The notes below the pieces were generated by a model that did no database searches, was not told the origin of the DNA, and saw only the letters and a list, made by a program, of their open reading frames with translations. The translations under genes were made by a program, and so were the position numbers. A stretch of 17,299 bases of DNA from a virus. Taxonomy: Duplodnaviria > Heunggongvirae > Uroviricota > Caudoviricetes. Positions 1,645-16,365 of the stretch are shown in pieces; position 1 is the stretch's first letter; each line of letters opens with the position of its first letter. Location: IMG/VR virus record IMGVR_UViG_2531839532_000008, positions 1 through 17,299 of that record; one strand, written 5' to 3'.

Positions 1645-2073
1645 ATGGCGATTAGTCAGGAACAGCAACAGCGCGGACTGGATCAGCTTAAAAAGATTCG
1701 CCGCAAATACTTCAATACCAGCAGTGAGGCTGCTGACTGGTGGGACAAATTAACACCGGAGTGGCGCGGGGTAGTTCTCCATGCCGCCGCTGTGAATTCT
1801 GGCTTGAGTGTCTTCAAAGCCCACTTAAGCAAATGCTGCTGGCGGGAACTGTTTGAACGTCTGGATTACCGGGCAATGATTCAGCTGCGTTGCGGCATTT
1901 CCCGCGCGCGTCTGACCATGAACGGATTCGGGTCATTGCGTGACAGTGATTTTTCTAAAAGTACCGCAAACCGTCCGATAAAGCGGGTTTATCCAATCAA
2001 TACCAATCGGGGGCCGCAAATGATTATCGCGCCTCACATCGTCCATAAGTTGCAAGAACAGGGGAATCTCTGA
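1645..2073 (+). CDS. Early-operon hypothetical protein, 142 aa
   Basis: ORF with an AGGGGG ribosome-binding site. Its stop overlaps the next start (TGATG), indicating translational coupling. No recognisable motif. Confidence 0.6.
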   Translation: MAISQEQQQRGLDQLKKIRRKYFNTSSEAADWWDKLTPEWRGVVLHAAAVNSGLSVFKAHLSKCCWRELFERLDYRAMIQLRCGISRARLTMNGFGSLRDSDFSKSTANRPIKRVYPINTNRGPQMIIAPHIVHKLQEQGNL

Positions 2074-2474
2074 TGACCATTATTTCTGTTGAAGGTAAAT
2101 CGTTAGGGGCTGAGCTGGCCGTGTGGGGAGTTCCGCATAATTACGCCGTGGCTTTTGCAGAGAAAAGCACCAGTAAAAATGGTCGTATTGCGTTACATCC
2201 GTTCTTCTTTAATGACACTGAGCACATGACTAATCCACGTCACTGGCTGGCGATCAATGCTGCTTTCTGGTGCTGCGTGTATCGCGAGGCCGAAAGCAAA
2301 GAAGCCCAGATTGAAGCGCTGGCCGGGATCCGCGCAATTTTCTATACGGCCGGGGCGCTGGGTGTTGGCGAGATTAAAGCACTGATTCAGGAGTGGTGGC
2401 GGACAACGTACGAGCTGCACCTTATTCCAGCACCGAACCATTCAGCCGTCACTGTACAACCCGCTTTTCACTAA
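2073..2474 (+). CDS. Early-operon hypothetical protein, 133 aa
   Basis: ORF whose start overlaps the stop of the upstream ORF by one base. Function unknown. Confidence 0.6.
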   Translation: MTIISVEGKSLGAELAVWGVPHNYAVAFAEKSTSKNGRIALHPFFFNDTEHMTNPRHWLAINAAFWCCVYREAESKEAQIEALAGIRAIFYTAGALGVGEIKALIQEWWRTTYELHLIPAPNHSAVTVQPAFH

Positions 2475-2493
2475 TTAACAACCTGAATTTTTT

Positions 2494-2512
2494 GGCCACA
2501 GCTTAGGTGGCC
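2494..2512 (+). other. Stem-loop GGCCAC-agcttag-GTGGCC followed by a short T-run
   Basis: 6 bp perfect stem with a 7 nt loop between two early ORFs; ttctttt lies a few nt downstream. Possible weak terminator or attenuator. Confidence 0.25.
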
Positions 2513-2541
2513 GGGGATTCTTTTGCCTTAAGGAAACCAAA

Positions 2542-2775
2542 ATGCACATGACACGTCAGGATTTACCCGCAACAAAATCAGGCACTGACCTGCTGGCCAT
2601 GCTCACTAAAGCCACGCAAGAAGGTAAAGCCGCAGTTGCTGATCTGTGTTCCACCCGCCTGGATAAGCTGGCCCCCCATGCAGCCAATGAAGGTTTAAGT
2701 GCAACGGAAATTGTTGAATTAATCCGCGAAGAAGCCGCAGCGATTTGCGGTAAAGGCGGTGCAGCATGGCAGTAA
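2542..2775 (+). CDS. Early-operon hypothetical protein, 77 aa
   Basis: ORF with an AAGGAAA ribosome-binding site. Its 3' end overlaps the start of the methyltransferase gene. Confidence 0.5.
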   Translation: MHMTRQDLPATKSGTDLLAMLTKATQEGKAAVADLCSTRLDKLAPHAANEGLSATEIVELIREEAAAICGKGGAAWQ

Positions 2776-3635
2776 AAACTCCGCTTAAGTGGGTGGGAAG
2801 CAAAGCCCGCCTTATGCCTCAGTTGCTTCCCCATCTGCCGGAAGGTAAGCGCCTGATTGAACCTTTCGCCGGTTCCTGCGCTGTCATGATGAATACGGAT
2901 TATGACGAGTATCTGATCGCTGATGTGAATCCTGATCTGGTCAATCTGTATAAGACGATGGCTTATCACACAGATGCGTTGCTTATTGAACTGGAGGCTT
3001 TGTTTTTTGCCGGTGCATTAGGCGATGAAGAAAACCGGGCAATTTTCTATTACGCAGTGCGTGATGCTTTCAACCAGTCCGGTAAATCCTTTGGTTCTGA
3101 ATCTGTGGAAGCTGCGGCGCGTTTTCTTTATCTGAACCGTCACTGCTTCAATGGTCTGTGCCGATACAATCGCCGTGGCCAGTTCAATGTTCCGTTTGGT
3201 AAGTACAAAAAAACGTACTTTCCTGCTGATGAAATACGCGCATTTGCTGAAAAAGCGAAACGCGCAACGTTCATTACTGCCCACTATTCAGAAACGCTTG
3301 ATTTGGTAAGGGACGGGCATGACGTTGTTTATTGTGATCCGCCTTACCTGACTGATACCGACAATTTCACCGCTTACCATGAGCGTGGTTTTTCGCACAT
3401 GGATCAGGGACGGCTGGCGCGTAAGTTGCGCCGCCTGGCTGAGCGTGGGATTAAGGTTGTCGCGTCAAACAGCGATCTGGAAATGGTACATTACCTGTAT
3501 GCAGGATTCGAAGCTGTACGGGTAAATGCACCGCGCAGTGTGGGTGCAGCAGCTGCAAGCCAGAAAGTTGCCGCAGAGCTGATTCTTAAGTCACCTGCAA
3601 ACCCGGCGATCGACGTTAGGGCGGTGGTGGCATGA
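2766..3635 (+). CDS. dam: DNA adenine methyltransferase, Dam family (GATC-type, D12 class N6-adenine MTase)
   Basis: Translation carries hallmark Dam motifs: LKWVGSK, EPFAGSCAV (AdoMet binding), FLYLNRHCFNGLCRYNRRGQFNVPFGKYKK and VVYCDPPY (catalytic DPPY). It aligns by eye along its length with E. coli Dam. Confidence 0.9.
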   Translation: MAVKTPLKWVGSKARLMPQLLPHLPEGKRLIEPFAGSCAVMMNTDYDEYLIADVNPDLVNLYKTMAYHTDALLIELEALFFAGALGDEENRAIFYYAVRDAFNQSGKSFGSESVEAAARFLYLNRHCFNGLCRYNRRGQFNVPFGKYKKTYFPADEIRAFAEKAKRATFITAHYSETLDLVRDGHDVVYCDPPYLTDTDNFTAYHERGFSHMDQGRLARKLRRLAERGIKVVASNSDLEMVHYLYAGFEAVRVNAPRSVGAAAASQKVAAELILKSPANPAIDVRAVVA

Positions 3636-11374: not shown

Positions 11375-11890
11375 ATGGCACTTTCCCCCGCGCAGCGTCA
11401 CAGCCAGCGTATTGCAATGGAACAAAAGCTGAAGCGCAGCCAGGCACTGGAAACCACAGAAAGTATGCATCTGCTGATCAGGGCGCTGGAAAAGGATGTG
11501 GAACACGTTCGAAGTCTGCCTACCATCGCCGATCGCGTCGAATATAAACGCGATGTGCTGTTGCCGCGCTGGGTTCCTACTGTGGAAGGGACTACCACGT
11601 CAGCACCGGCTAATGCCTGGCAAAAATGGAATGGTAAGGCGTGGGTGGATGATGCGGAGGCCATGCGAACTGCATTGGTCAGCGAGGCAGACGCCGAAAA
11701 GAAAAGCCTGCTTAAACAGGCCAATGATGCCATTGCCACATTGCAGGATGCCGTTGATTTAGACATGGCGACCGAAGAAGAAGCACTCCTGCTTATCGCA
11801 TGGAAAAAATACCGCGTTTTACTGAATCGTATTCAACCGGAAGATGCGCCGGAAATTGTGTGGCCGGAGGTGCCTGGAAATGTGGCGTGA
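11375..11890 (+). CDS. Terminase small (endonuclease) subunit, P2 gpM-like
   Basis: N-terminus MALSPAQRHSQRIA parallels the P2 M N-terminus (SPAQRH motif). It immediately follows the capsid gene, as in P2. Confidence 0.75.
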   Translation: MALSPAQRHSQRIAMEQKLKRSQALETTESMHLLIRALEKDVEHVRSLPTIADRVEYKRDVLLPRWVPTVEGTTTSAPANAWQKWNGKAWVDDAEAMRTALVSEADAEKKSLLKQANDAIATLQDAVDLDMATEEEALLLIAWKKYRVLLNRIQPEDAPEIVWPEVPGNVA

Positions 11891-12605
11891 AGCACGTCTG
11901 GCCTTCACGGATTCTGTTGCTGCGCTGAACTGTTCGATCGTCCCTGCGCATCCGTGGATTTATGGGCTGGGACAGCAGACAGCGAACGGGGCATATCTCA
12001 GCCCGGTTAATGCCGTTCGCTATCTTGCTGAACGCCTGGCCGGAACAGGTGGGAATGTGGACGTGGTGATTATGATGGTCACCGGACAGACGCAGGAAAA
12101 CTTTATGGCCAGTCTGAATAACCTGGTCGGGATTTTCCCCGCCCCGGCATTCACACAGGTCAAACGGCTGGCGCAATCCGCCGCAGCGTTGGCTATTGAA
12201 AAGATGCAGATCCCGGCGAAAGCCGCCGCAGCGTTACCTGCGTCCATTCCGCTGTCTGTACCAACCAGCAGGGCAGCTTTATCTGCTGCGGCAATCAGCC
12301 AGGCACAAAAGGCGGCGGGTGCCGGGTTTGATATCGAAGGGCTGAAAAAACAGCTGGGCGAGTTCACGCAGCTGCGTGACCAGCTTATCAGTGATGTGGC
12401 CAGCGGCCTGAATGATTTACAGGGGAAAAGTGCCAGAGCGTGGGTTTTTACTGCCAGCGGAGACACCGGTACCACGTTACTGGAACTGGTGAAGGACATT
12501 CCGCAGCAGTCTGCCGTTTACACCGCAGCCATGATGCTGGTTGGCGATAATCTTGATGGAATAAAGGGAATGATTCATGACTTCGATCCCGACACTGGCG
12601 CTTAA
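11880..12605 (+). CDS. Late-operon hypothetical protein, 241 aa, Ala-rich central region (occupies the position of head completion gene L)
   Basis: Start placed at ATG 11880 with a GGAGGTG ribosome-binding site; it overlaps the upstream stop (ATGTGGCGTGA). No recognisable motif. Confidence 0.55.
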   Translation: MWREARLAFTDSVAALNCSIVPAHPWIYGLGQQTANGAYLSPVNAVRYLAERLAGTGGNVDVVIMMVTGQTQENFMASLNNLVGIFPAPAFTQVKRLAQSAAALAIEKMQIPAKAAAALPASIPLSVPTSRAALSAAAISQAQKAAGAGFDIEGLKKQLGEFTQLRDQLISDVASGLNDLQGKSARAWVFTASGDTGTTLLELVKDIPQQSAVYTAAMMLVGDNLDGIKGMIHDFDPDTGA

Positions 12606-13122
12606 TGGCGAGGCCATCCAGCTGAAAAACATGCGGGTGACTGTTTCACAGCAGTTTCAGGATAAAGATCAGTCCGGCCAGACCAGCGCCACAACAAAAT
12701 CAGAGCAGGGGGCAAAGGGAAAGGAACTGCGGATCAGCGGTGAAATCCCTTTTAAACAGCCTGAAATACTGAAGCGTATTTTTGAGCTGGCCAGTGCTAC
12801 CGATGCCAGTGGTAATCGTCAGAAGTACCGCGTGGCGCATGAAGTTGCCCGTGCTGTTAATTTTCGTGAAGCAACGTTTAGCGGAATGCTGGATGCACCA
12901 CAGCAGGACGGAAAAATGTCCTGGCTGGTGACATTCACACTGGCGGAACATATCAGCGTGCAGGAAAAGCGAGAGGCAAGGGCAACAGGTAAGACGACCG
13001 CAAAAAAACAGACTGCCAGTAGTGCGGGACAGTCCGGTGGTCAGTCTGCCGGAGAAGATGAAGAAAAACTGACGTGGTTTGAACGCAAGGTGCTGAAGCC
13101 CGTCAATGATGCTTTGGGTTAA
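12577..13122 (+). CDS. Late-operon hypothetical protein, 181 aa
   Basis: ORF with an AAGGGA ribosome-binding site; it overlaps the upstream gene by 29 nt. Gly/Ser/Gln-rich acidic C-terminus. Unassigned. Confidence 0.55.
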   Translation: MTSIPTLALNGEAIQLKNMRVTVSQQFQDKDQSGQTSATTKSEQGAKGKELRISGEIPFKQPEILKRIFELASATDASGNRQKYRVAHEVARAVNFREATFSGMLDAPQQDGKMSWLVTFTLAEHISVQEKREARATGKTTAKKQTASSAGQSGGQSAGEDEEKLTWFERKVLKPVNDALG

Positions 13123-14090
13123 TGATGAAACCAGTAAAACGCCTTTACCTTTCAACGGATGAAGTTCACCTGGTGGATGCCAGCCTGGTACTGGAGCTGA
13201 ACAGCTGCGGCCGGGGCTTCATCACCGCAGAGACAACAACCGATTACACCGGAAAACTGGTGCGGCTGGATGTGGGGTATACCGATCTGCTTTTGCGCTG
13301 GTTTACGGGGTATGCGGAGCGATCGCAGCCCGCTGAAAACGGTTTTCAGCGTCTGTTCATTCGTGAACTGGTTGGTGTGTTTGAAAGGATGTGGCCATGT
13401 TCGTTTCAACACCCGACTTTGCGTGAAATTGCGGGCTGGCTGGAAGAAAACAGCGGGATCACGGTCAGTGTGCCTGACACACAGTACAGCGATACCCCCA
13501 TCCCACATTTTACCCATAACGGTACTGGTTATCAGTTGCTGAACAATCTGGGCAGGTCGTTCAGTATCCAGGATTACATCTGGTACCAGTTGCCTGATGG
13601 TTCGCTTTACGTCGGCGGCGCAGAAAAGTCATTGTTTGCCGGTCGTCCCGTAGAAATCCCGTCAGAGTTCAGCCAGGGTGCTGCTGGCGGTAACTCTGTG
13701 ACATTACCAGTGATCCAGACTATGCGGCCAGGGGTGGAGATGAACGGTGAACGCGTGACTAAAGTTCACCTGACTAATGACACGATGGCGATCACATGGA
13801 CGCCGAGAAACCGCGCAACGGGTAAACCTTTGCAGAAAACACCGGCGCAACGGCAGATTGAAAGCCATTACCCGGAACTGGCATCCGGGCTTCATTTGCC
13901 AAAGATGGCCAGAGTCGTGGCGCATTCAGAGCCGGTAAAAAGCGGTAACTTTGCCGATCCCTTCCGGCCACGTTACGCCGTGGACGTGCAGCTGCTTGAC
14001 GCAGACGGAAACCCTATGGTGATGCCTTGCTTCAGGTCGGCGAAATCACCAATCACGCAATTGTCAGTAATAACAATACCGTTCAGATGA
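13122..14090 (+). CDS. Late-operon hypothetical protein, 322 aa; its C-terminus probably derives from read-through across the element junction
   Basis: TAATG overlap with the upstream gene. The last roughly 24-40 codons are antisense to a conserved hexapeptide acetyltransferase segment, so the native C-terminus may have been lost. Confidence 0.5.
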   Translation: MMKPVKRLYLSTDEVHLVDASLVLELNSCGRGFITAETTTDYTGKLVRLDVGYTDLLLRWFTGYAERSQPAENGFQRLFIRELVGVFERMWPCSFQHPTLREIAGWLEENSGITVSVPDTQYSDTPIPHFTHNGTGYQLLNNLGRSFSIQDYIWYQLPDGSLYVGGAEKSLFAGRPVEIPSEFSQGAAGGNSVTLPVIQTMRPGVEMNGERVTKVHLTNDTMAITWTPRNRATGKPLQKTPAQRQIESHYPELASGLHLPKMARVVAHSEPVKSGNFADPFRPRYAVDVQLLDADGNPMVMPCFRSAKSPITQLSVITIPFR

Positions 14091-14356
14091 GCAATGTTTA
14101 AACCCTTGCCAATTTTGCATGACAGAGAAATATCAACGCTGTGCCGGTACTTGAGGCGGTTTTCAATCCTGCGGGCAATGCGCTTTTTGAACTTGCTATT
14201 CTGACCATAGAGCCATGAAGCAATACGCCACCAGAACAGGAAGTGCTTCTTCTGGTTGCGTCGGGTACGAAGTAACGCTTTACGCCATGAAAAGGATTTG
14301 TCATGGCCAATGACTTCAAGGCGGATACATTCTTTAAGTTGGTCGTAGGAAGTCAT
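13973..14356 (-). pseudogene. Truncated hexapeptide-repeat acetyltransferase (WcaB/CysE-like), N-terminal fragment
   Basis: Translation shows left-handed beta-helix hexapeptide repeats (ISLSCKIGKGLNIAHLNGIVITDNCVIGDFADLKQGITIG). Similarity stops abruptly near 14018 and the frame ends in a non-homologous tail, where a full-length enzyme would continue with further repeats. Confidence 0.6.
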
Positions 14357-14679
14357 GATTAGTCATCCTGACAAGAAAAAAAGGGATTTTAAATCAATAC
14401 GATTTTTAGACAATGGTTTTCGTTGTGGGAAGGAGGGACTTTAGTTGTGTCGCCACTTTGTCGCCAAGCATGGGAAATGGTTGGTGTAATCTATTGATTT
14501 CATGGGTTGAAAAATTCAGGCAACAAAAAACCCATCAACCTTGAACCGAAATGGCGGGGGTGATGGGCTCCACAAAATGGGGACATCAAAGAAAAGCAGT
14601 GGCACTAATTAAGACTGATGCCCTGCGGAAAAGTTCTGCGGTTGTGCAAAAAAATTTCATTTTCAGGGCAACTTCAGTT

Positions 14680-16365
14680 TTATCCTAATCCTGGCCATAC
14701 CATGACGATGATTGTCCCTGCCAGCGTCAGCAGGACGTTGGCGATTGCATAGGTGCCCGCATAGCCCAGCGCCGGGATGTTACTGCGAGCTGTATCACTG
14801 ATGATCTCCATTGCCGGCGCGCAGGTACGTGCGCCCATCATTGCGCCGAACAACAGCGCGCGGTTCATTCGCAATACATAAGCACCGAACAAGAAACAGA
14901 TAACCACGGGCACCAGACTGACAATCAATCCGGCAATCAACATCTGACCGCCAATCGCGCCCAGGCCGTTATTAATACCGCTACCGGCGCTCAGACCAAC
15001 CCCTGCCATAAACACCATCAAGCCGAACTCTTTCACCATGCTTAATGCACCCTGCGGAATGTAACCGAAGGTCGGGTGGTTAGCACGCATAAAGCCCAGC
15101 ATAATTCCGGCGAATAACAACCCGGCAGCGTTCCCCATGCCGAAACTGAATGTGCTGAACTGGAAGGTGATCATCCCGATCATCAGCCCAATAACAAAGA
15201 AGGCGCAGAATGCCAGCAGGTCAGTGACCTGGCTGTGAATCGAGATAAAGCCGATGCGATCGGCGATGGTTTTTACGCGGCGGGCATCGCCGCTGACTTG
15301 TAAAACGTCACCTTTGTTAAGCACGACGTTGTCATCTATCGGCATCTCAATCTGGCTACGAATGACGCGGTTAAGGAAGCAACCGTGATCGGTCAACTTC
15401 AGTTGTGCGAGACGTTTACCTACAGCGTTATGGTTTTTAACGACCACTTCTTCAGTGACGATACGCATGTCGAGAAGGTCACGATCGAAAACTTCTTTAC
15501 CGTTACGGAAGCTGGGATCGAGTCGGGCATGGGCGTCGGGATAGCCTACCAACGCTATTTCATCGCCCATTTGTAGCACGGCATCACCGTCTGGATTTGC
15601 CAGAATCCCGTTACGTCGAATACGTTCAATGTAGCAGCCGGTTTGTCGATAAATACCCAGTTCACGCAGATTTTTGCCGTCGGTCCAGGCCACCAGTTCC
15701 GGGCCGACGCGATAGGCACGGATCACCGGTAAATAAACCTTACGGTTGGCATCAGTGTCCAGGCCACGTTCGCGGGCGATTTGCTGGGCGCTGGTCTGTA
15801 AGTCCTGATGCTGCAATTTCGGCAAGTAACGCGCACCAACAATCAAACTCACCAGACCGATTAAATAGGTTAAGGCATACCCGAGGCTCAGATTATCCAG
15901 TGCCAGTGAGAGCTGCCTGCTTTCCATGCCGGAATGACGCAGTGTATCGCCAGCACCGACCAGAACCGGTGTCGACGTCATAGAGCCTGCTAACATACCG
16001 GCCGTCAGGCCAATATCCCAGCCAAACAGCTTACCTAACCCTAAGGCGATCACCAGCGCACTGCCAACCATCACCAGTGCTAACATTAGGTAATTTTTCC
16101 CATCGCGAAAAAAAATGGAAAAAAAGTTCGGTCCGGCTTCGACCCCGACGCAGAAAATAAACAGCATAAAGCCAAGATTAAGCGCATCGGTGTTAATGCT
16201 GAAATGTTGTTGGCCTAATAACAGCGATACGACTAAAACGCCAATGGAATTACCCAGTTGGATCGAACCAAGTCGTAACTTTCCGAGACATAGCCCAAGC
16301 GCGAGGACCACAAATAATAACAGAATGTAATTCCCATTTAACAATTCGGCGACGTTTATATTCAC
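14680..16365 (-). CDS. ybjL: Putative transport protein YbjL (two transporter domains with central TrkA-C-like domains)
   Basis: 561 aa translation matches E. coli YbjL as I recall it ([30 protein letters not shown]...). Its neighbours are ybjM and grxA, as in E. coli K-12. The start appears to be GTG at 16363-16365. Confidence 0.88.

Follow-up and report, generated by a model that had tools for sequence, protein, structure and literature searches.

The virus record IMGVR_UViG_2531839532_000008, whose 17,299 nucleotides make up the window analysed here, carries a head-gene module of a P2-like phage, behind which an open reading frame runs antisense into a truncated acetyltransferase gene. Is this place the boundary of a compact, tail-less element that depends on a helper phage, or a deletion scar in a decaying prophage? 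Both had been proposed in a sequence-only reading of the window. The reading frames themselves are as that reading had described them: a 322-aa ORF (13122..14090, +) ends at 14090 and overlaps convergently with a minus-strand ORF (13973..14356, 127 aa), the first 114 codons of which encode the N-terminal part of a hexapeptide acetyltransferase of 208 aa. Here we show that the locus is very probably a Quadragintavirus-like Peduoviridae prophage in rybB that has been crippled by deletions and is decaying, and not a satellite.

Bounds of the prophage and its attachment sites

The window was 100% identical to GCA_000356145.2 (E. coli) and 99.94% identical to strain 300709. A 14-bp att core is present at both ends of the prophage. 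The attR core lies in the window (Table 1) and the attL core at positions 1094967-1094980 of NZ_CP025903.1, 18.1 kb upstream, with an att-to-att span of 18,124 bp. In K-12 the core is present only once, within rybB, between rcdA and ybjL. It forms the last 14 nt of rybB, which is regenerated at attR, where it matched all 79 positions of the Rfam model RF00110 with 100.3 bits (gathering score 40). A tyrosine integrase gene adjoins the att repeats and the prophage interrupts an otherwise conserved host locus. Host DNA begins at 14536, directly after the attR core; the element had been thought to end at the acetyltransferase gene, but its true end is about 500 bases further on, in rybB. The first protein-coding host gene to the right of the prophage is ybjL.

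The right arm of the attachment site contains the promoter region of the acetyltransferase gene as well as a tandem TGTCGCCA motif at 14448-14455 and 14459-14466. The attL arm carries this motif too, as does the attR arm of a further prophage at rybB, and the motif may represent a putative integrase arm site. The part from 14448 to 14521 had an 82% match in a P2-type prophage of rybB, within the attR arm of the latter. This gene is a hotspot for P2-like (Felsduovirus) prophages, and those integrated there are carriers of defence systems (PMC10121019).

Table 1. Positions of features at the right end of the prophage, numbered from the first letter of the window
Feature	Position	Strand	Evidence or family
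Chimeric 171-aa ORF	11375..11890	+	Pfam, PHROG, junction alignment, tblastn
Junction of deletion 1	11584..11588	.	blastn coordinates and three-way alignment
241-aa tail-module gene, intact	11880..12605	+	phrog_1677, unknown function
HP1 ORF34-type baseplate complex protein, 181 aa, intact	12577..13122	+	Pfam PF25759, E=5e-54
Truncated baseplate hub/spike gene	13122..14014	+	phrog_2258, tblastn, PGAP
Junction of deletion 2	14010..14014	.	blastn coordinates and three-way alignment
Read-through tail of 322-aa ORF, 24 codons and stop	14015..14090	+	alignment, ORF translation
Remnant of phage-borne hexapeptide-repeat acetyltransferase	14015..14356	-	phrog_2154, Pfam, tblastn
Right attP-derived arm of attachment site	14357..14521	.	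no K-12 match
attR core AACAAAAAACCCAT	14522..14535	.	same as attL core and single K-12 copy
rybB sRNA gene, full length	14522..14600	-	Rfam RF00110 and K-12 annotation
ybjL, aspartate:alanine antiporter	14680..16365	-	annotation; 99.95% identity to K-12

Two deletions relative to intact relatives

The nearest classified relative was Escherichia phage ESSI2_ev015 (NC_049395.1; 30,584 bp; Peduoviridae, Quadragintavirus). The window was compared with two intact prophages, L002 and L003, the second of which showed 95.8% identity to ESSI2_ev015 across 99% of its length. But for two gaps, the window was collinear with both at 91-97% DNA identity, and the comparison mapped the gaps as two clean deletions. 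The BLAST and HMM similarities used, with E-values between 0 and 1e-31, are far too strong to be due to chance.

Deletion 1 amounts to 11,426 bp as compared to L003, with window positions 11588/11584 corresponding to L003 positions 7663/19085. The 5-bp microhomology GGAAG is present at both breakpoints in L003 (7659-7663 and 19085-19089), a single copy of which was kept in the window, with no inserted DNA. The lost segment starts at codon 72 of the small terminase gene and ends at codon 94 of that for tail-fibre assembly; with it went the genes for head-tail adaptor, tail terminator, sheath, tube, tape measure, baseplate and fibre, as well as the lysis genes for holin, endolysin and spanin. 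When ESSI2_ev015 was searched gene by gene using tblastn, an unbroken run of 16 genes, tail fibre through L33, remained unmatched in the window. The sequence-only reading had noticed this lack of a tail or lysis module, correctly as far as these 16 genes are concerned, but had overlooked that three successive ORFs, the last of which is the 322-aa one, are tail (baseplate) genes. They make up the tail module's distal end, and the element is, therefore, not free of tail genes.

The junction of deletion 1 falls in a 171-aa ORF, in which codons 1-71 of the small terminase gpM are joined in frame to residues 95-195 of the tail fibre assembly protein Tfa. Both halves were recognised by Pfam (PF05944, Phage_term_smal, residues 37-75; PF02413, Caudo_TAP, residues 67-167) and by PHROG (74, terminase small subunit, residues 3-76; 105, tail fibre assembly, residues 69-169). 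Of gpM, 71 of 234 codons are kept (Pfam positions 3-40 of 130); the tblastn match reached residue 87 with low identity past residue 71, true homology being limited to residues 1-71. The protein is named 'tail fiber assembly protein' in RefSeq (WP_001737016.1), but is a terminase::Tfa chimera made by the deletion. What had been taken for a small terminase gene about 2 kb upstream of the acetyltransferase is this 71-codon stub, to which the C-terminal part of Tfa is attached.

Deletion 2 measures 1,640 bp as compared to L003 and 2,071 bp as compared to L002, window positions 14014/14010 corresponding to L003 positions 21515/23151. Here the 5-bp microhomology is AACCC, present at both breakpoints of the intact relatives and again kept as a single copy with no inserted DNA. 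The ends of this deletion lie at codon 298 of the baseplate hub gene and at codon 115 of the convergent, phage-borne acetyltransferase gene. Since two convergent genes were joined mid-gene, each truncated ORF runs antisense to a chance stop, at 14090 on the plus strand and at 13973 on the minus strand. Thus, the read-through tail of the 322-aa ORF crosses the acetyltransferase remnant, while the 127-aa ORF continues for 13 codons and a stop in the hub gene. The similarity to acetyltransferase does stop abruptly, as had been noticed, though at 14010-14014 and not near 14018.

The hub gene retains codons 1-297 of 567 (tblastn query 1-298) and its product matched positions 1-313 of 544 of the 'baseplate protein' family phrog_2258 (E=3e-161), all of which is covered by the homologue in L002; PGAP flags the gene as 'missing C-terminus'. 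The part lost is the gpV/gp5-like OB and beta-helix region (aa 309-489 of the full protein), the matches of the full-length hub to PF04717 and PF22178 being weak and below threshold. The acetyltransferase gene retains codons 1-114 of 208 (tblastn 1-116), with residues 4-117 matching phrog_2154. Its hexapeptide region (aa 125-158) is gone; in the full-length protein these residues scored 26.9 bits with PF00132, the cut-off being 27.

Host-type sequence had been thought to begin with the acetyltransferase. The gene is, however, gp40 of ESSI2_ev015 (96.6% amino acid identity; annotated 'serine O-acetyltransferase'), and it is found in the phage genomes of ESSI2_ev015 and ev129, inside prophages relative to K-12, and in relatives at a different chromosomal site. 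Its DNA was matched in only 4 of 5,426 genomes. The acetyltransferase is phage cargo and not a disrupted host gene; a backbone serine acetyltransferase of the host cysE type was considered and ruled out, as the gene belongs to the phage family phrog_2154 and lies within prophages and phages. A PADLOC scan of the acetyltransferase gave no match to defence families. Being of the hexapeptide-transferase family and carried as cargo, it probably serves O-acetylation in lysogenic conversion.

Both junctions show a short repeat with one copy left and neither filler nor mobile-element DNA. Estimated by hand under the usual expectation for random junctions, the chance of at least 5 bp at one such junction is about 0.005, and for both junctions about 2e-5. 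Of the two origins proposed for this place, the deletion scar of a decaying prophage is borne out, with two microhomology-flanked deletions resolved to the base against intact relatives. The deletions may have arisen by replication slippage or by microhomology-mediated end joining, and we found nothing that contradicts the deletion reading. Recombination between prophages at mntR and rybB, which are 35 kb apart, was also considered as the source of the deletions and rejected, the intervening host genes all being present in strain 300709.

Genes left in the element

Every head and replication gene still present is intact. The portal, large terminase, scaffold and capsid proteins are full length, with 98.8-100% amino acid identity to those of ESSI2_ev015 by tblastn; the capsid belongs to PF05125 (Phage_cap_P2) and the scaffold to PF05929 (GPO). 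Between the two junctions, the 241-aa protein showed 98.8% amino acid identity over its full length to gp03 of ESSI2_ev015, its gene following the tail-fibre assembly gene just as in L002 and L003, and the 181-aa baseplate protein showed 98.3% identity to gp02. CI and integrase are intact. Adjoining the integrase is a HEC-01-type defence pair (AAA ATPase and DUF4276), the members of which matched HEC-01A/B in PADLOC with E=2e-154 and 6e-63. No match to a 19-nt P2 cos query was found in the window with up to 3 mismatches. The intactness of the remaining genes fits a very recent deletion, but would also fit retained function. Judged by its gene content, the remnant is predicted to be incapable of lysis, of making tails and of cutting or packaging DNA.

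Relatives and parentage

The element has the gene order of ESSI2_ev015 and of its relatives at the mntR locus (NZ_CP169309.1, NZ_OZ547246.1), with 91-97% DNA identity from the replication gene to the capsid, in the last three and a half tail genes and in the acetyltransferase cargo, but lacks 11.4 kb and about 1.6-2.1 kb that they possess. Its integrase/CI/att module is different (47% and 39% amino acid identity to ESSI2_ev015 for integrase and CI, respectively), and it resides in rybB whereas the ESSI2_ev015-type relatives lie beside mntR. The P2-like (Felsduovirus-type) prophages of rybB, which is defence hotspot #29 of Hochhauser et al. 2023 (PMC10121019), such as that in NZ_CP046259.1, share with the element the att core, the rybB-regenerating insertion and an attL-integrase-DUF4276-AAA-ATPase-CI segment of 92.5-99.9% identity. 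In contrast, they carry complete P2-type replication, head and tail genes in about 37 kb, while those of the element are of Quadragintavirus type and mostly deleted.

Among complete genomes, no intact Quadragintavirus-type prophage was found to carry this integrase module of rybB, and genomes with the same integrase (n=17) showed zero overlap with those having the Quadragintavirus tail module (n=57). We therefore infer the exact parent from relatives of 96-97% identity at another locus. A literature search on ESSI2_ev015 found no paper. The parent would have combined morphogenesis genes of the Quadragintavirus/ESSI2_ev015 type with an integrase-immunity module of the type used by rybB-integrating P2-like prophages. 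We propose that it integrated first and then suffered two illegitimate deletions, each between 5-bp direct repeats, one of which removed 11.4 kb from the small terminase gene to the tail-fibre assembly gene and the other about 1.6-2.1 kb from the hub gene to the acetyltransferase gene. Thereafter, the remnant would have passed by vertical descent within a single lineage of E. coli.

Decay of this kind is seen elsewhere in the same phage group. The relative L006 has deletions from rep to portal and from portal to acetyltransferase, and L014, a P2-type prophage at rybB, has a sheath::tape-measure fusion; both are cases of independent decay. Internally deleted cryptic prophages likewise lose late genes by deletions ending inside ORFs, keep att sites, integrase and immunity, and are inherited vertically. 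The element is the same in kind, and a young example, because its remaining proteins are still 98-100% identical to those of a classified phage.

Distribution

Each junction was present in 1 of 5,426 complete E. coli genomes (NZ_CP025903.1, strain 300709), and each of the three junction ORFs was found on 14 contigs in a collection of about 15 billion proteins. All 21 contigs that were read had an identical context beside ybjL with 99.9-100% identity, which points to one clonal lineage. No intermediate with only one of the deletions was found among complete E. coli genomes or the contigs of the protein collection. The deleted 11.35 kb, sought elsewhere in the closed genome of strain 300709, had no match anywhere in it, and that strain was absent among all 57 records in which this DNA was matched.

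Alternative explanations

It is possible, though we hold it doubtful, that the decayed prophage is actively retained (domesticated) for the benefit of its host, a reading which extends the deletion reading and does not compete with it. Superinfection immunity by CI and the HEC-01-type pair are suggested as benefits, with deletion of the lysis genes removing the cost, and this suggestion is equally tentative. In its favour, the HEC-01A/B matches stand beside intact CI and integrase genes, the lysis cassette falls within deletion 1, and P2-like prophages of rybB are reported as carriers of defence systems (PMC10121019). However, substitutions in the clonal lineage are too few to measure constraint, and recent deletions explain the intactness of the remaining genes equally well. 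Within the deletion reading itself, the remnant may have persisted since the lethal lysis genes were lost while immunity and the HEC-01 pair were kept.

Very unlikely, in our view, is that the remnant is a satellite at its birth, which is excised, replicated and packaged upon superinfection by a phage of the ESSI2_ev015 type. The att sites, integrase, replication genes, ogr and the full procapsid set would all be still working, and the helper would give small terminase, adaptor, tails and lysis, an arrangement no less unlikely. If true, it would be a live example of helper-dependent elements born from prophages by deletion.

That the element evolved as a compact, capsid-encoding, tail-less satellite of the cf-PICI kind, with heads of its own and the tails and lysis of a helper, is most improbable. 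Tail-less capsid-forming satellites are known (bioRxiv 10.1101/2025.02.11.637232), and as the element has genes for capsid, portal and large terminase but lacks most of those for the tail, it bears a superficial likeness to cf-PICIs. Its integrase, repressor, replication genes, ogr, portal, large terminase, scaffold and major capsid genes are intact, as are its att sites, while nearly all tail and lysis genes are missing. However, cf-PICIs do their own DNA packaging, possess genes for adaptor and connector, have an HK97-type operon and recur across species (bioRxiv 10.1101/2025.02.11.637232). The element possesses neither a complete packaging set nor an HK97-type operon, its capsid being of P2 type, and does not recur in unrelated strains or species, its architecture being confined to one clonal lineage and one locus. 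Since its small terminase is a stub (71 of 234 codons) and its head-tail adaptor/head completion gene is gone, self-packaging and tail docking, the abilities that define cf-PICIs, are lost. Tail genes are still present, three intact and two truncated, and the missing DNA is bounded within ORFs on both sides, at the 5-bp microhomologies. As for a resident helper, the host genome holds no other Peduoviridae portal/terminase locus. These results do not support the idea of a boundary of a tail-less helper-dependent element, the site being internal to the prophage.

There is next to no likelihood that the junctions are an assembly artefact of collapsed or mis-joined contigs, with an intact prophage in the real genome: although the window derives from a 2013 draft assembly (GCA_000356145.2) with 10 private transversions, both junctions are present in the closed chromosome NZ_CP025903.1 and in independent assemblies from other runs (ERR1192788, ERR2789512, SRR29378964), the deleted segment is missing from the whole closed genome of strain 300709, and the breakpoints have only 5 bp in common, which is too short for assembly collapse.

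Significance

The consequence of the deletion reading goes little beyond annotation. The locus should be labelled as a defective Quadragintavirus-like prophage in rybB, and the 322-aa and 127-aa ORFs as truncated genes with nonsense read-through tails. Where capsid genes are found without tail genes, the small terminase, the adaptor and recurrence should be checked before an element is called a cf-PICI-like satellite. The locus provides a clean, base-resolved case of a prophage grounded through microhomology-mediated deletion.

Source and gene order of the locus

The window matched one contig of the E. coli draft assembly GCA_000356145.2 at 100% identity and the closed E. coli strain 300709 chromosome (NZ_CP025903.1) at 99.94%. 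The gene order in strain 300709 is rcdA, attL, a small hypothetical gene, phage integrase, DUF4276 protein, AAA ATPase, CI, CII, Fil, Dam methylase, replication endonuclease, ogr, portal, large terminase, GPO scaffold, P2-family capsid, a "tail fiber assembly protein", two hypothetical proteins, a pseudogene "missing C-terminus" and ybjL. The AAA ATPase/DUF4276 pair between integrase and CI, just left of the window (L001, the strain 300709 locus, 1768-3501; NZ_CP025903.1 1096836-1098569), matches HEC-01, a candidate defence system in PADLOC (E=2e-154 for HEC-01A and 6e-63 for HEC-01B), and occupies a typical P2-type defence hotspot position.

GCA_000356145.2 was unlike all other same-lineage assemblies covering ten sites (window 1297, 2674, 2798, 8482, 9362, 10086, 10101, 10548, 14560 and 15001). 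All ten private changes were transversions, seven of them A:T to C:G, and six of the eight coding changes were nonsynonymous (e.g. TerL T281P, capsid V67G), a pattern that would fit a mutT-type mutator isolate or, alternatively, a sequencing artefact of the draft. The change at 14560 lies in rybB, where the Rfam alignment shows a C-U mismatch in place of an A-U pair in the terminator stem of RybB; the paired base is present in K-12 and in strain 300709.

Two deletions relative to intact prophages

Related prophages were found in about 35-57 complete E. coli genomes, and two of these, L002 and L003, are intact and integrated beside mntR. Among classified phages, ESSI2_ev015 of Escherichia (30,584 bp; Peduoviridae, Quadragintavirus) comes closest, with 95.8% identity across 99% of L003. 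Following the capsid gene, L002 and L003 carry a 705-bp gpM small terminase gene, a head completion/adaptor gene, tail terminator, sheath (DUF2586) and tube, the lysis genes (holin, M15 endolysin and spanin), then chaperone, tape measure, DUF2590 protein, baseplate J, tail fibre, a 588-bp tail-fibre assembly (Tfa) gene, a 726-bp gene, a 546-bp HP1-ORF34-type baseplate gene, a 1,704-bp baseplate gene and a small ORF, followed on the opposite strand by a 627-bp "serine O-acetyltransferase" (gp40 in ESSI2_ev015) and an AAA ATPase.

Blastn alignment of the window with L003 gave three collinear blocks meeting at two junctions. For junction 1, the parental sequence on the left is ...ACTGTGGAAG up to the breakpoint and CCTATC beyond it, that on the right is ...CCCGGAAG and then GGACAA, and the window has ...ACTGTGGAAGGGACTA; GGAAG is present at both parental breakpoints, and a single copy was retained upon loss of 11,426 bp. 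For junction 2, the left-hand parental sequence is ...GACGGAAACCC followed by GGACAA, the right-hand one is ...GCGTAACCC followed by TATGG, and the window has ...GACGGAAACCCTATGG, with AACCC common to both flanks; this deletion measures 1,640 bp against L003 and 2,071 bp against L002. Alignment with both parental flanks revealed no foreign DNA at either junction. Both junctions show 5 bp of microhomology. A length of 5 bp or more is expected by chance at about 0.5% of junctions, as estimated by hand from the standard expectation for random junctions, and its presence at both indicates that the deletions probably arose by slippage or microhomology-mediated joining.

Features of the window associated with the deletions and the right prophage end
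Feature	Window position	Strand	Description
rybB-type module and att arm	1-1197; 14373-14535		P2-like; 92-99.9% identity to L007
gpM::Tfa fusion ORF	11375..11890		171 aa; Phage_term_smal residues 37-75 + Caudo_TAP residues 67-167
Junction 1	11584-11588		GGAAG
322-aa ORF	13122..14090	plus	Truncated baseplate gene; 297 real codons + 25 across/beyond junction
127-aa ORF	13973..14356	minus	Truncated acetyltransferase; 114 real codons + 13 meaningless
Junction 2	14010-14014		AACCC
Right att arm	14357-14521
Tandem TGTCGCCA motif	14448-14466		Spacing 11 bp
Complete RybB gene	14522-14600	minus	Rfam, 100.3 bits vs gathering score 40

Effects on the genes

Deletion 1 joins gpM codons 1-71 in frame to Tfa residues 95-195, and the resulting ORF also matches PHROG 74 and PHROG 105. 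That the fusion is in frame is happenstance. RefSeq WP_001737016.1 is this deletion-generated chimera, named "tail fiber assembly protein" like a normal gene. Deletion 2 leaves codons 1-297 of 567 in the baseplate gene (phrog_2258) and codons 1-114 of 208 in the hexapeptide acetyltransferase (phrog_2154). The parts lost include baseplate residues 309-489, where the full-length protein has gpV/gp5-type OB and beta-helix matches that are weak and below threshold, and the acetyltransferase hexapeptide region (residues 125-158). Convergence of the two genes means that each truncated frame continues antisense through the other as far as a chance stop, and the two ORFs overlap by 118 bp. The convergent geometry noticed in the sequence-only reading is real, and deletion 2 explains it fully.

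When ESSI2_ev015 proteins were searched gene by gene (tblastn) against the whole prophage in the strain 300709 sequence, portal, large terminase, scaffold and capsid were full length with 98.8-100% amino acid identity; a block of 16 consecutive genes (tail fibre through L33) had no match.

Prophage ends and mosaic make-up

The sequence-only reading had the element ending abruptly at 13900-14400 and took the acetyltransferase for host-type sequence. The right att arm in fact extends beyond that region, and right-side host homology to K-12 starts with the att core at 14522; on the left it stops at NZ_CP025903.1 position 1094980. The acetyltransferase of the mntR-locus prophages sits within DNA inserted relative to K-12, and it is found in two classified phage genomes. 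The proposed search for att direct repeats succeeded: the 14-bp AACAAAAAACCCAT is present at both prophage ends and in single copy in K-12. With the host homology limits, it therefore defines a prophage of 18,124 bp. The core forms the final 14 nt of rybB, and insertion regenerates the sRNA gene at attR. Besides the attR arm, the attL arm and the attR arm of a further prophage at rybB also contain the TGTCGCCA motif (L005 35084-35095; L007, NZ_CP046259.1, 37170-37184), and such motifs are candidate integrase arm-binding sites. rybB is an integration hotspot for P2-like (Felsduovirus) prophages with defence systems (PMC10121019). The mntR-locus Quadragintavirus-type prophages stop right next to the rybA/mntS sRNA gene, at its 5' end (L002 25937; L003 25519; K-12 locus L012 7068); small-RNA genes (rybA, rybB) thus abut both integration sites that these relatives use.

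The integrase and attL are common to 17 complete genomes (98.6-100% identity), and L007, the one examined among them, is a complete P2-type prophage. The attL/integrase/CI/cox-position module and att arms are of this P2-like rybB type; the replication, head and tail genes are of Quadragintavirus type. The element is thus a mosaic of a rybB-type integrase/immunity module and a Quadragintavirus-type body. Of 5,426 complete E. coli genomes, none yielded an intact phage combining the two.

Distribution and alternative explanations

Each junction occurred in one of the 5,426 complete genomes, and each of the three junction-specific ORFs in 14 contigs of a collection of ~15 billion proteins. All 21 inspected contigs with the fusion ORF had identical neighbours, including ybjL where the contig extended far enough, and fetched loci were 99.9-100% identical to the window. 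This distribution points to vertical inheritance within a single lineage and against a mobile architecture that recurs.

A superinfecting helper phage of the ESSI2_ev015 type is highly unlikely to mobilise the remnant. A tail-less capsid element, as the sequence-only reading had offered, does not hold: cf-PICIs are characterised by self-packaging, adaptor and connector genes, an HK97-type operon and recurrence across species (bioRxiv 10.1101/2025.02.11.637232), and the element shows none of the defining features testable computationally here. A resident helper is ruled out in strain 300709, where the only Peduoviridae-type portal/terminase locus is that of the element. A tail module displaced elsewhere is likewise ruled out by this single locus and by the deleted 11.35 kb, which had no match anywhere in that genome. 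Assembly artefact is excluded, as independent assemblies share the junctions.

The mntR relative L006 (NZ_AP031375.1) has lost the DNA between the replication and portal genes and all DNA from portal to acetyltransferase, and L014, a P2-type prophage at rybB, carries a sheath::tape-measure fusion pseudogene; these relatives decay in the same manner. At 4035-7810 of L006, a portal fragment directly adjoins the replication gene and the acetyltransferase is full length, an independent decay; a reverse-transcriptase gene (retron/DRT-like PADLOC matches) replaces the AAA ATPase of other relatives. The decaying-prophage alternative was right: mapped to the base against intact relatives, the element is a defective prophage, and the finding is an ordinary one.
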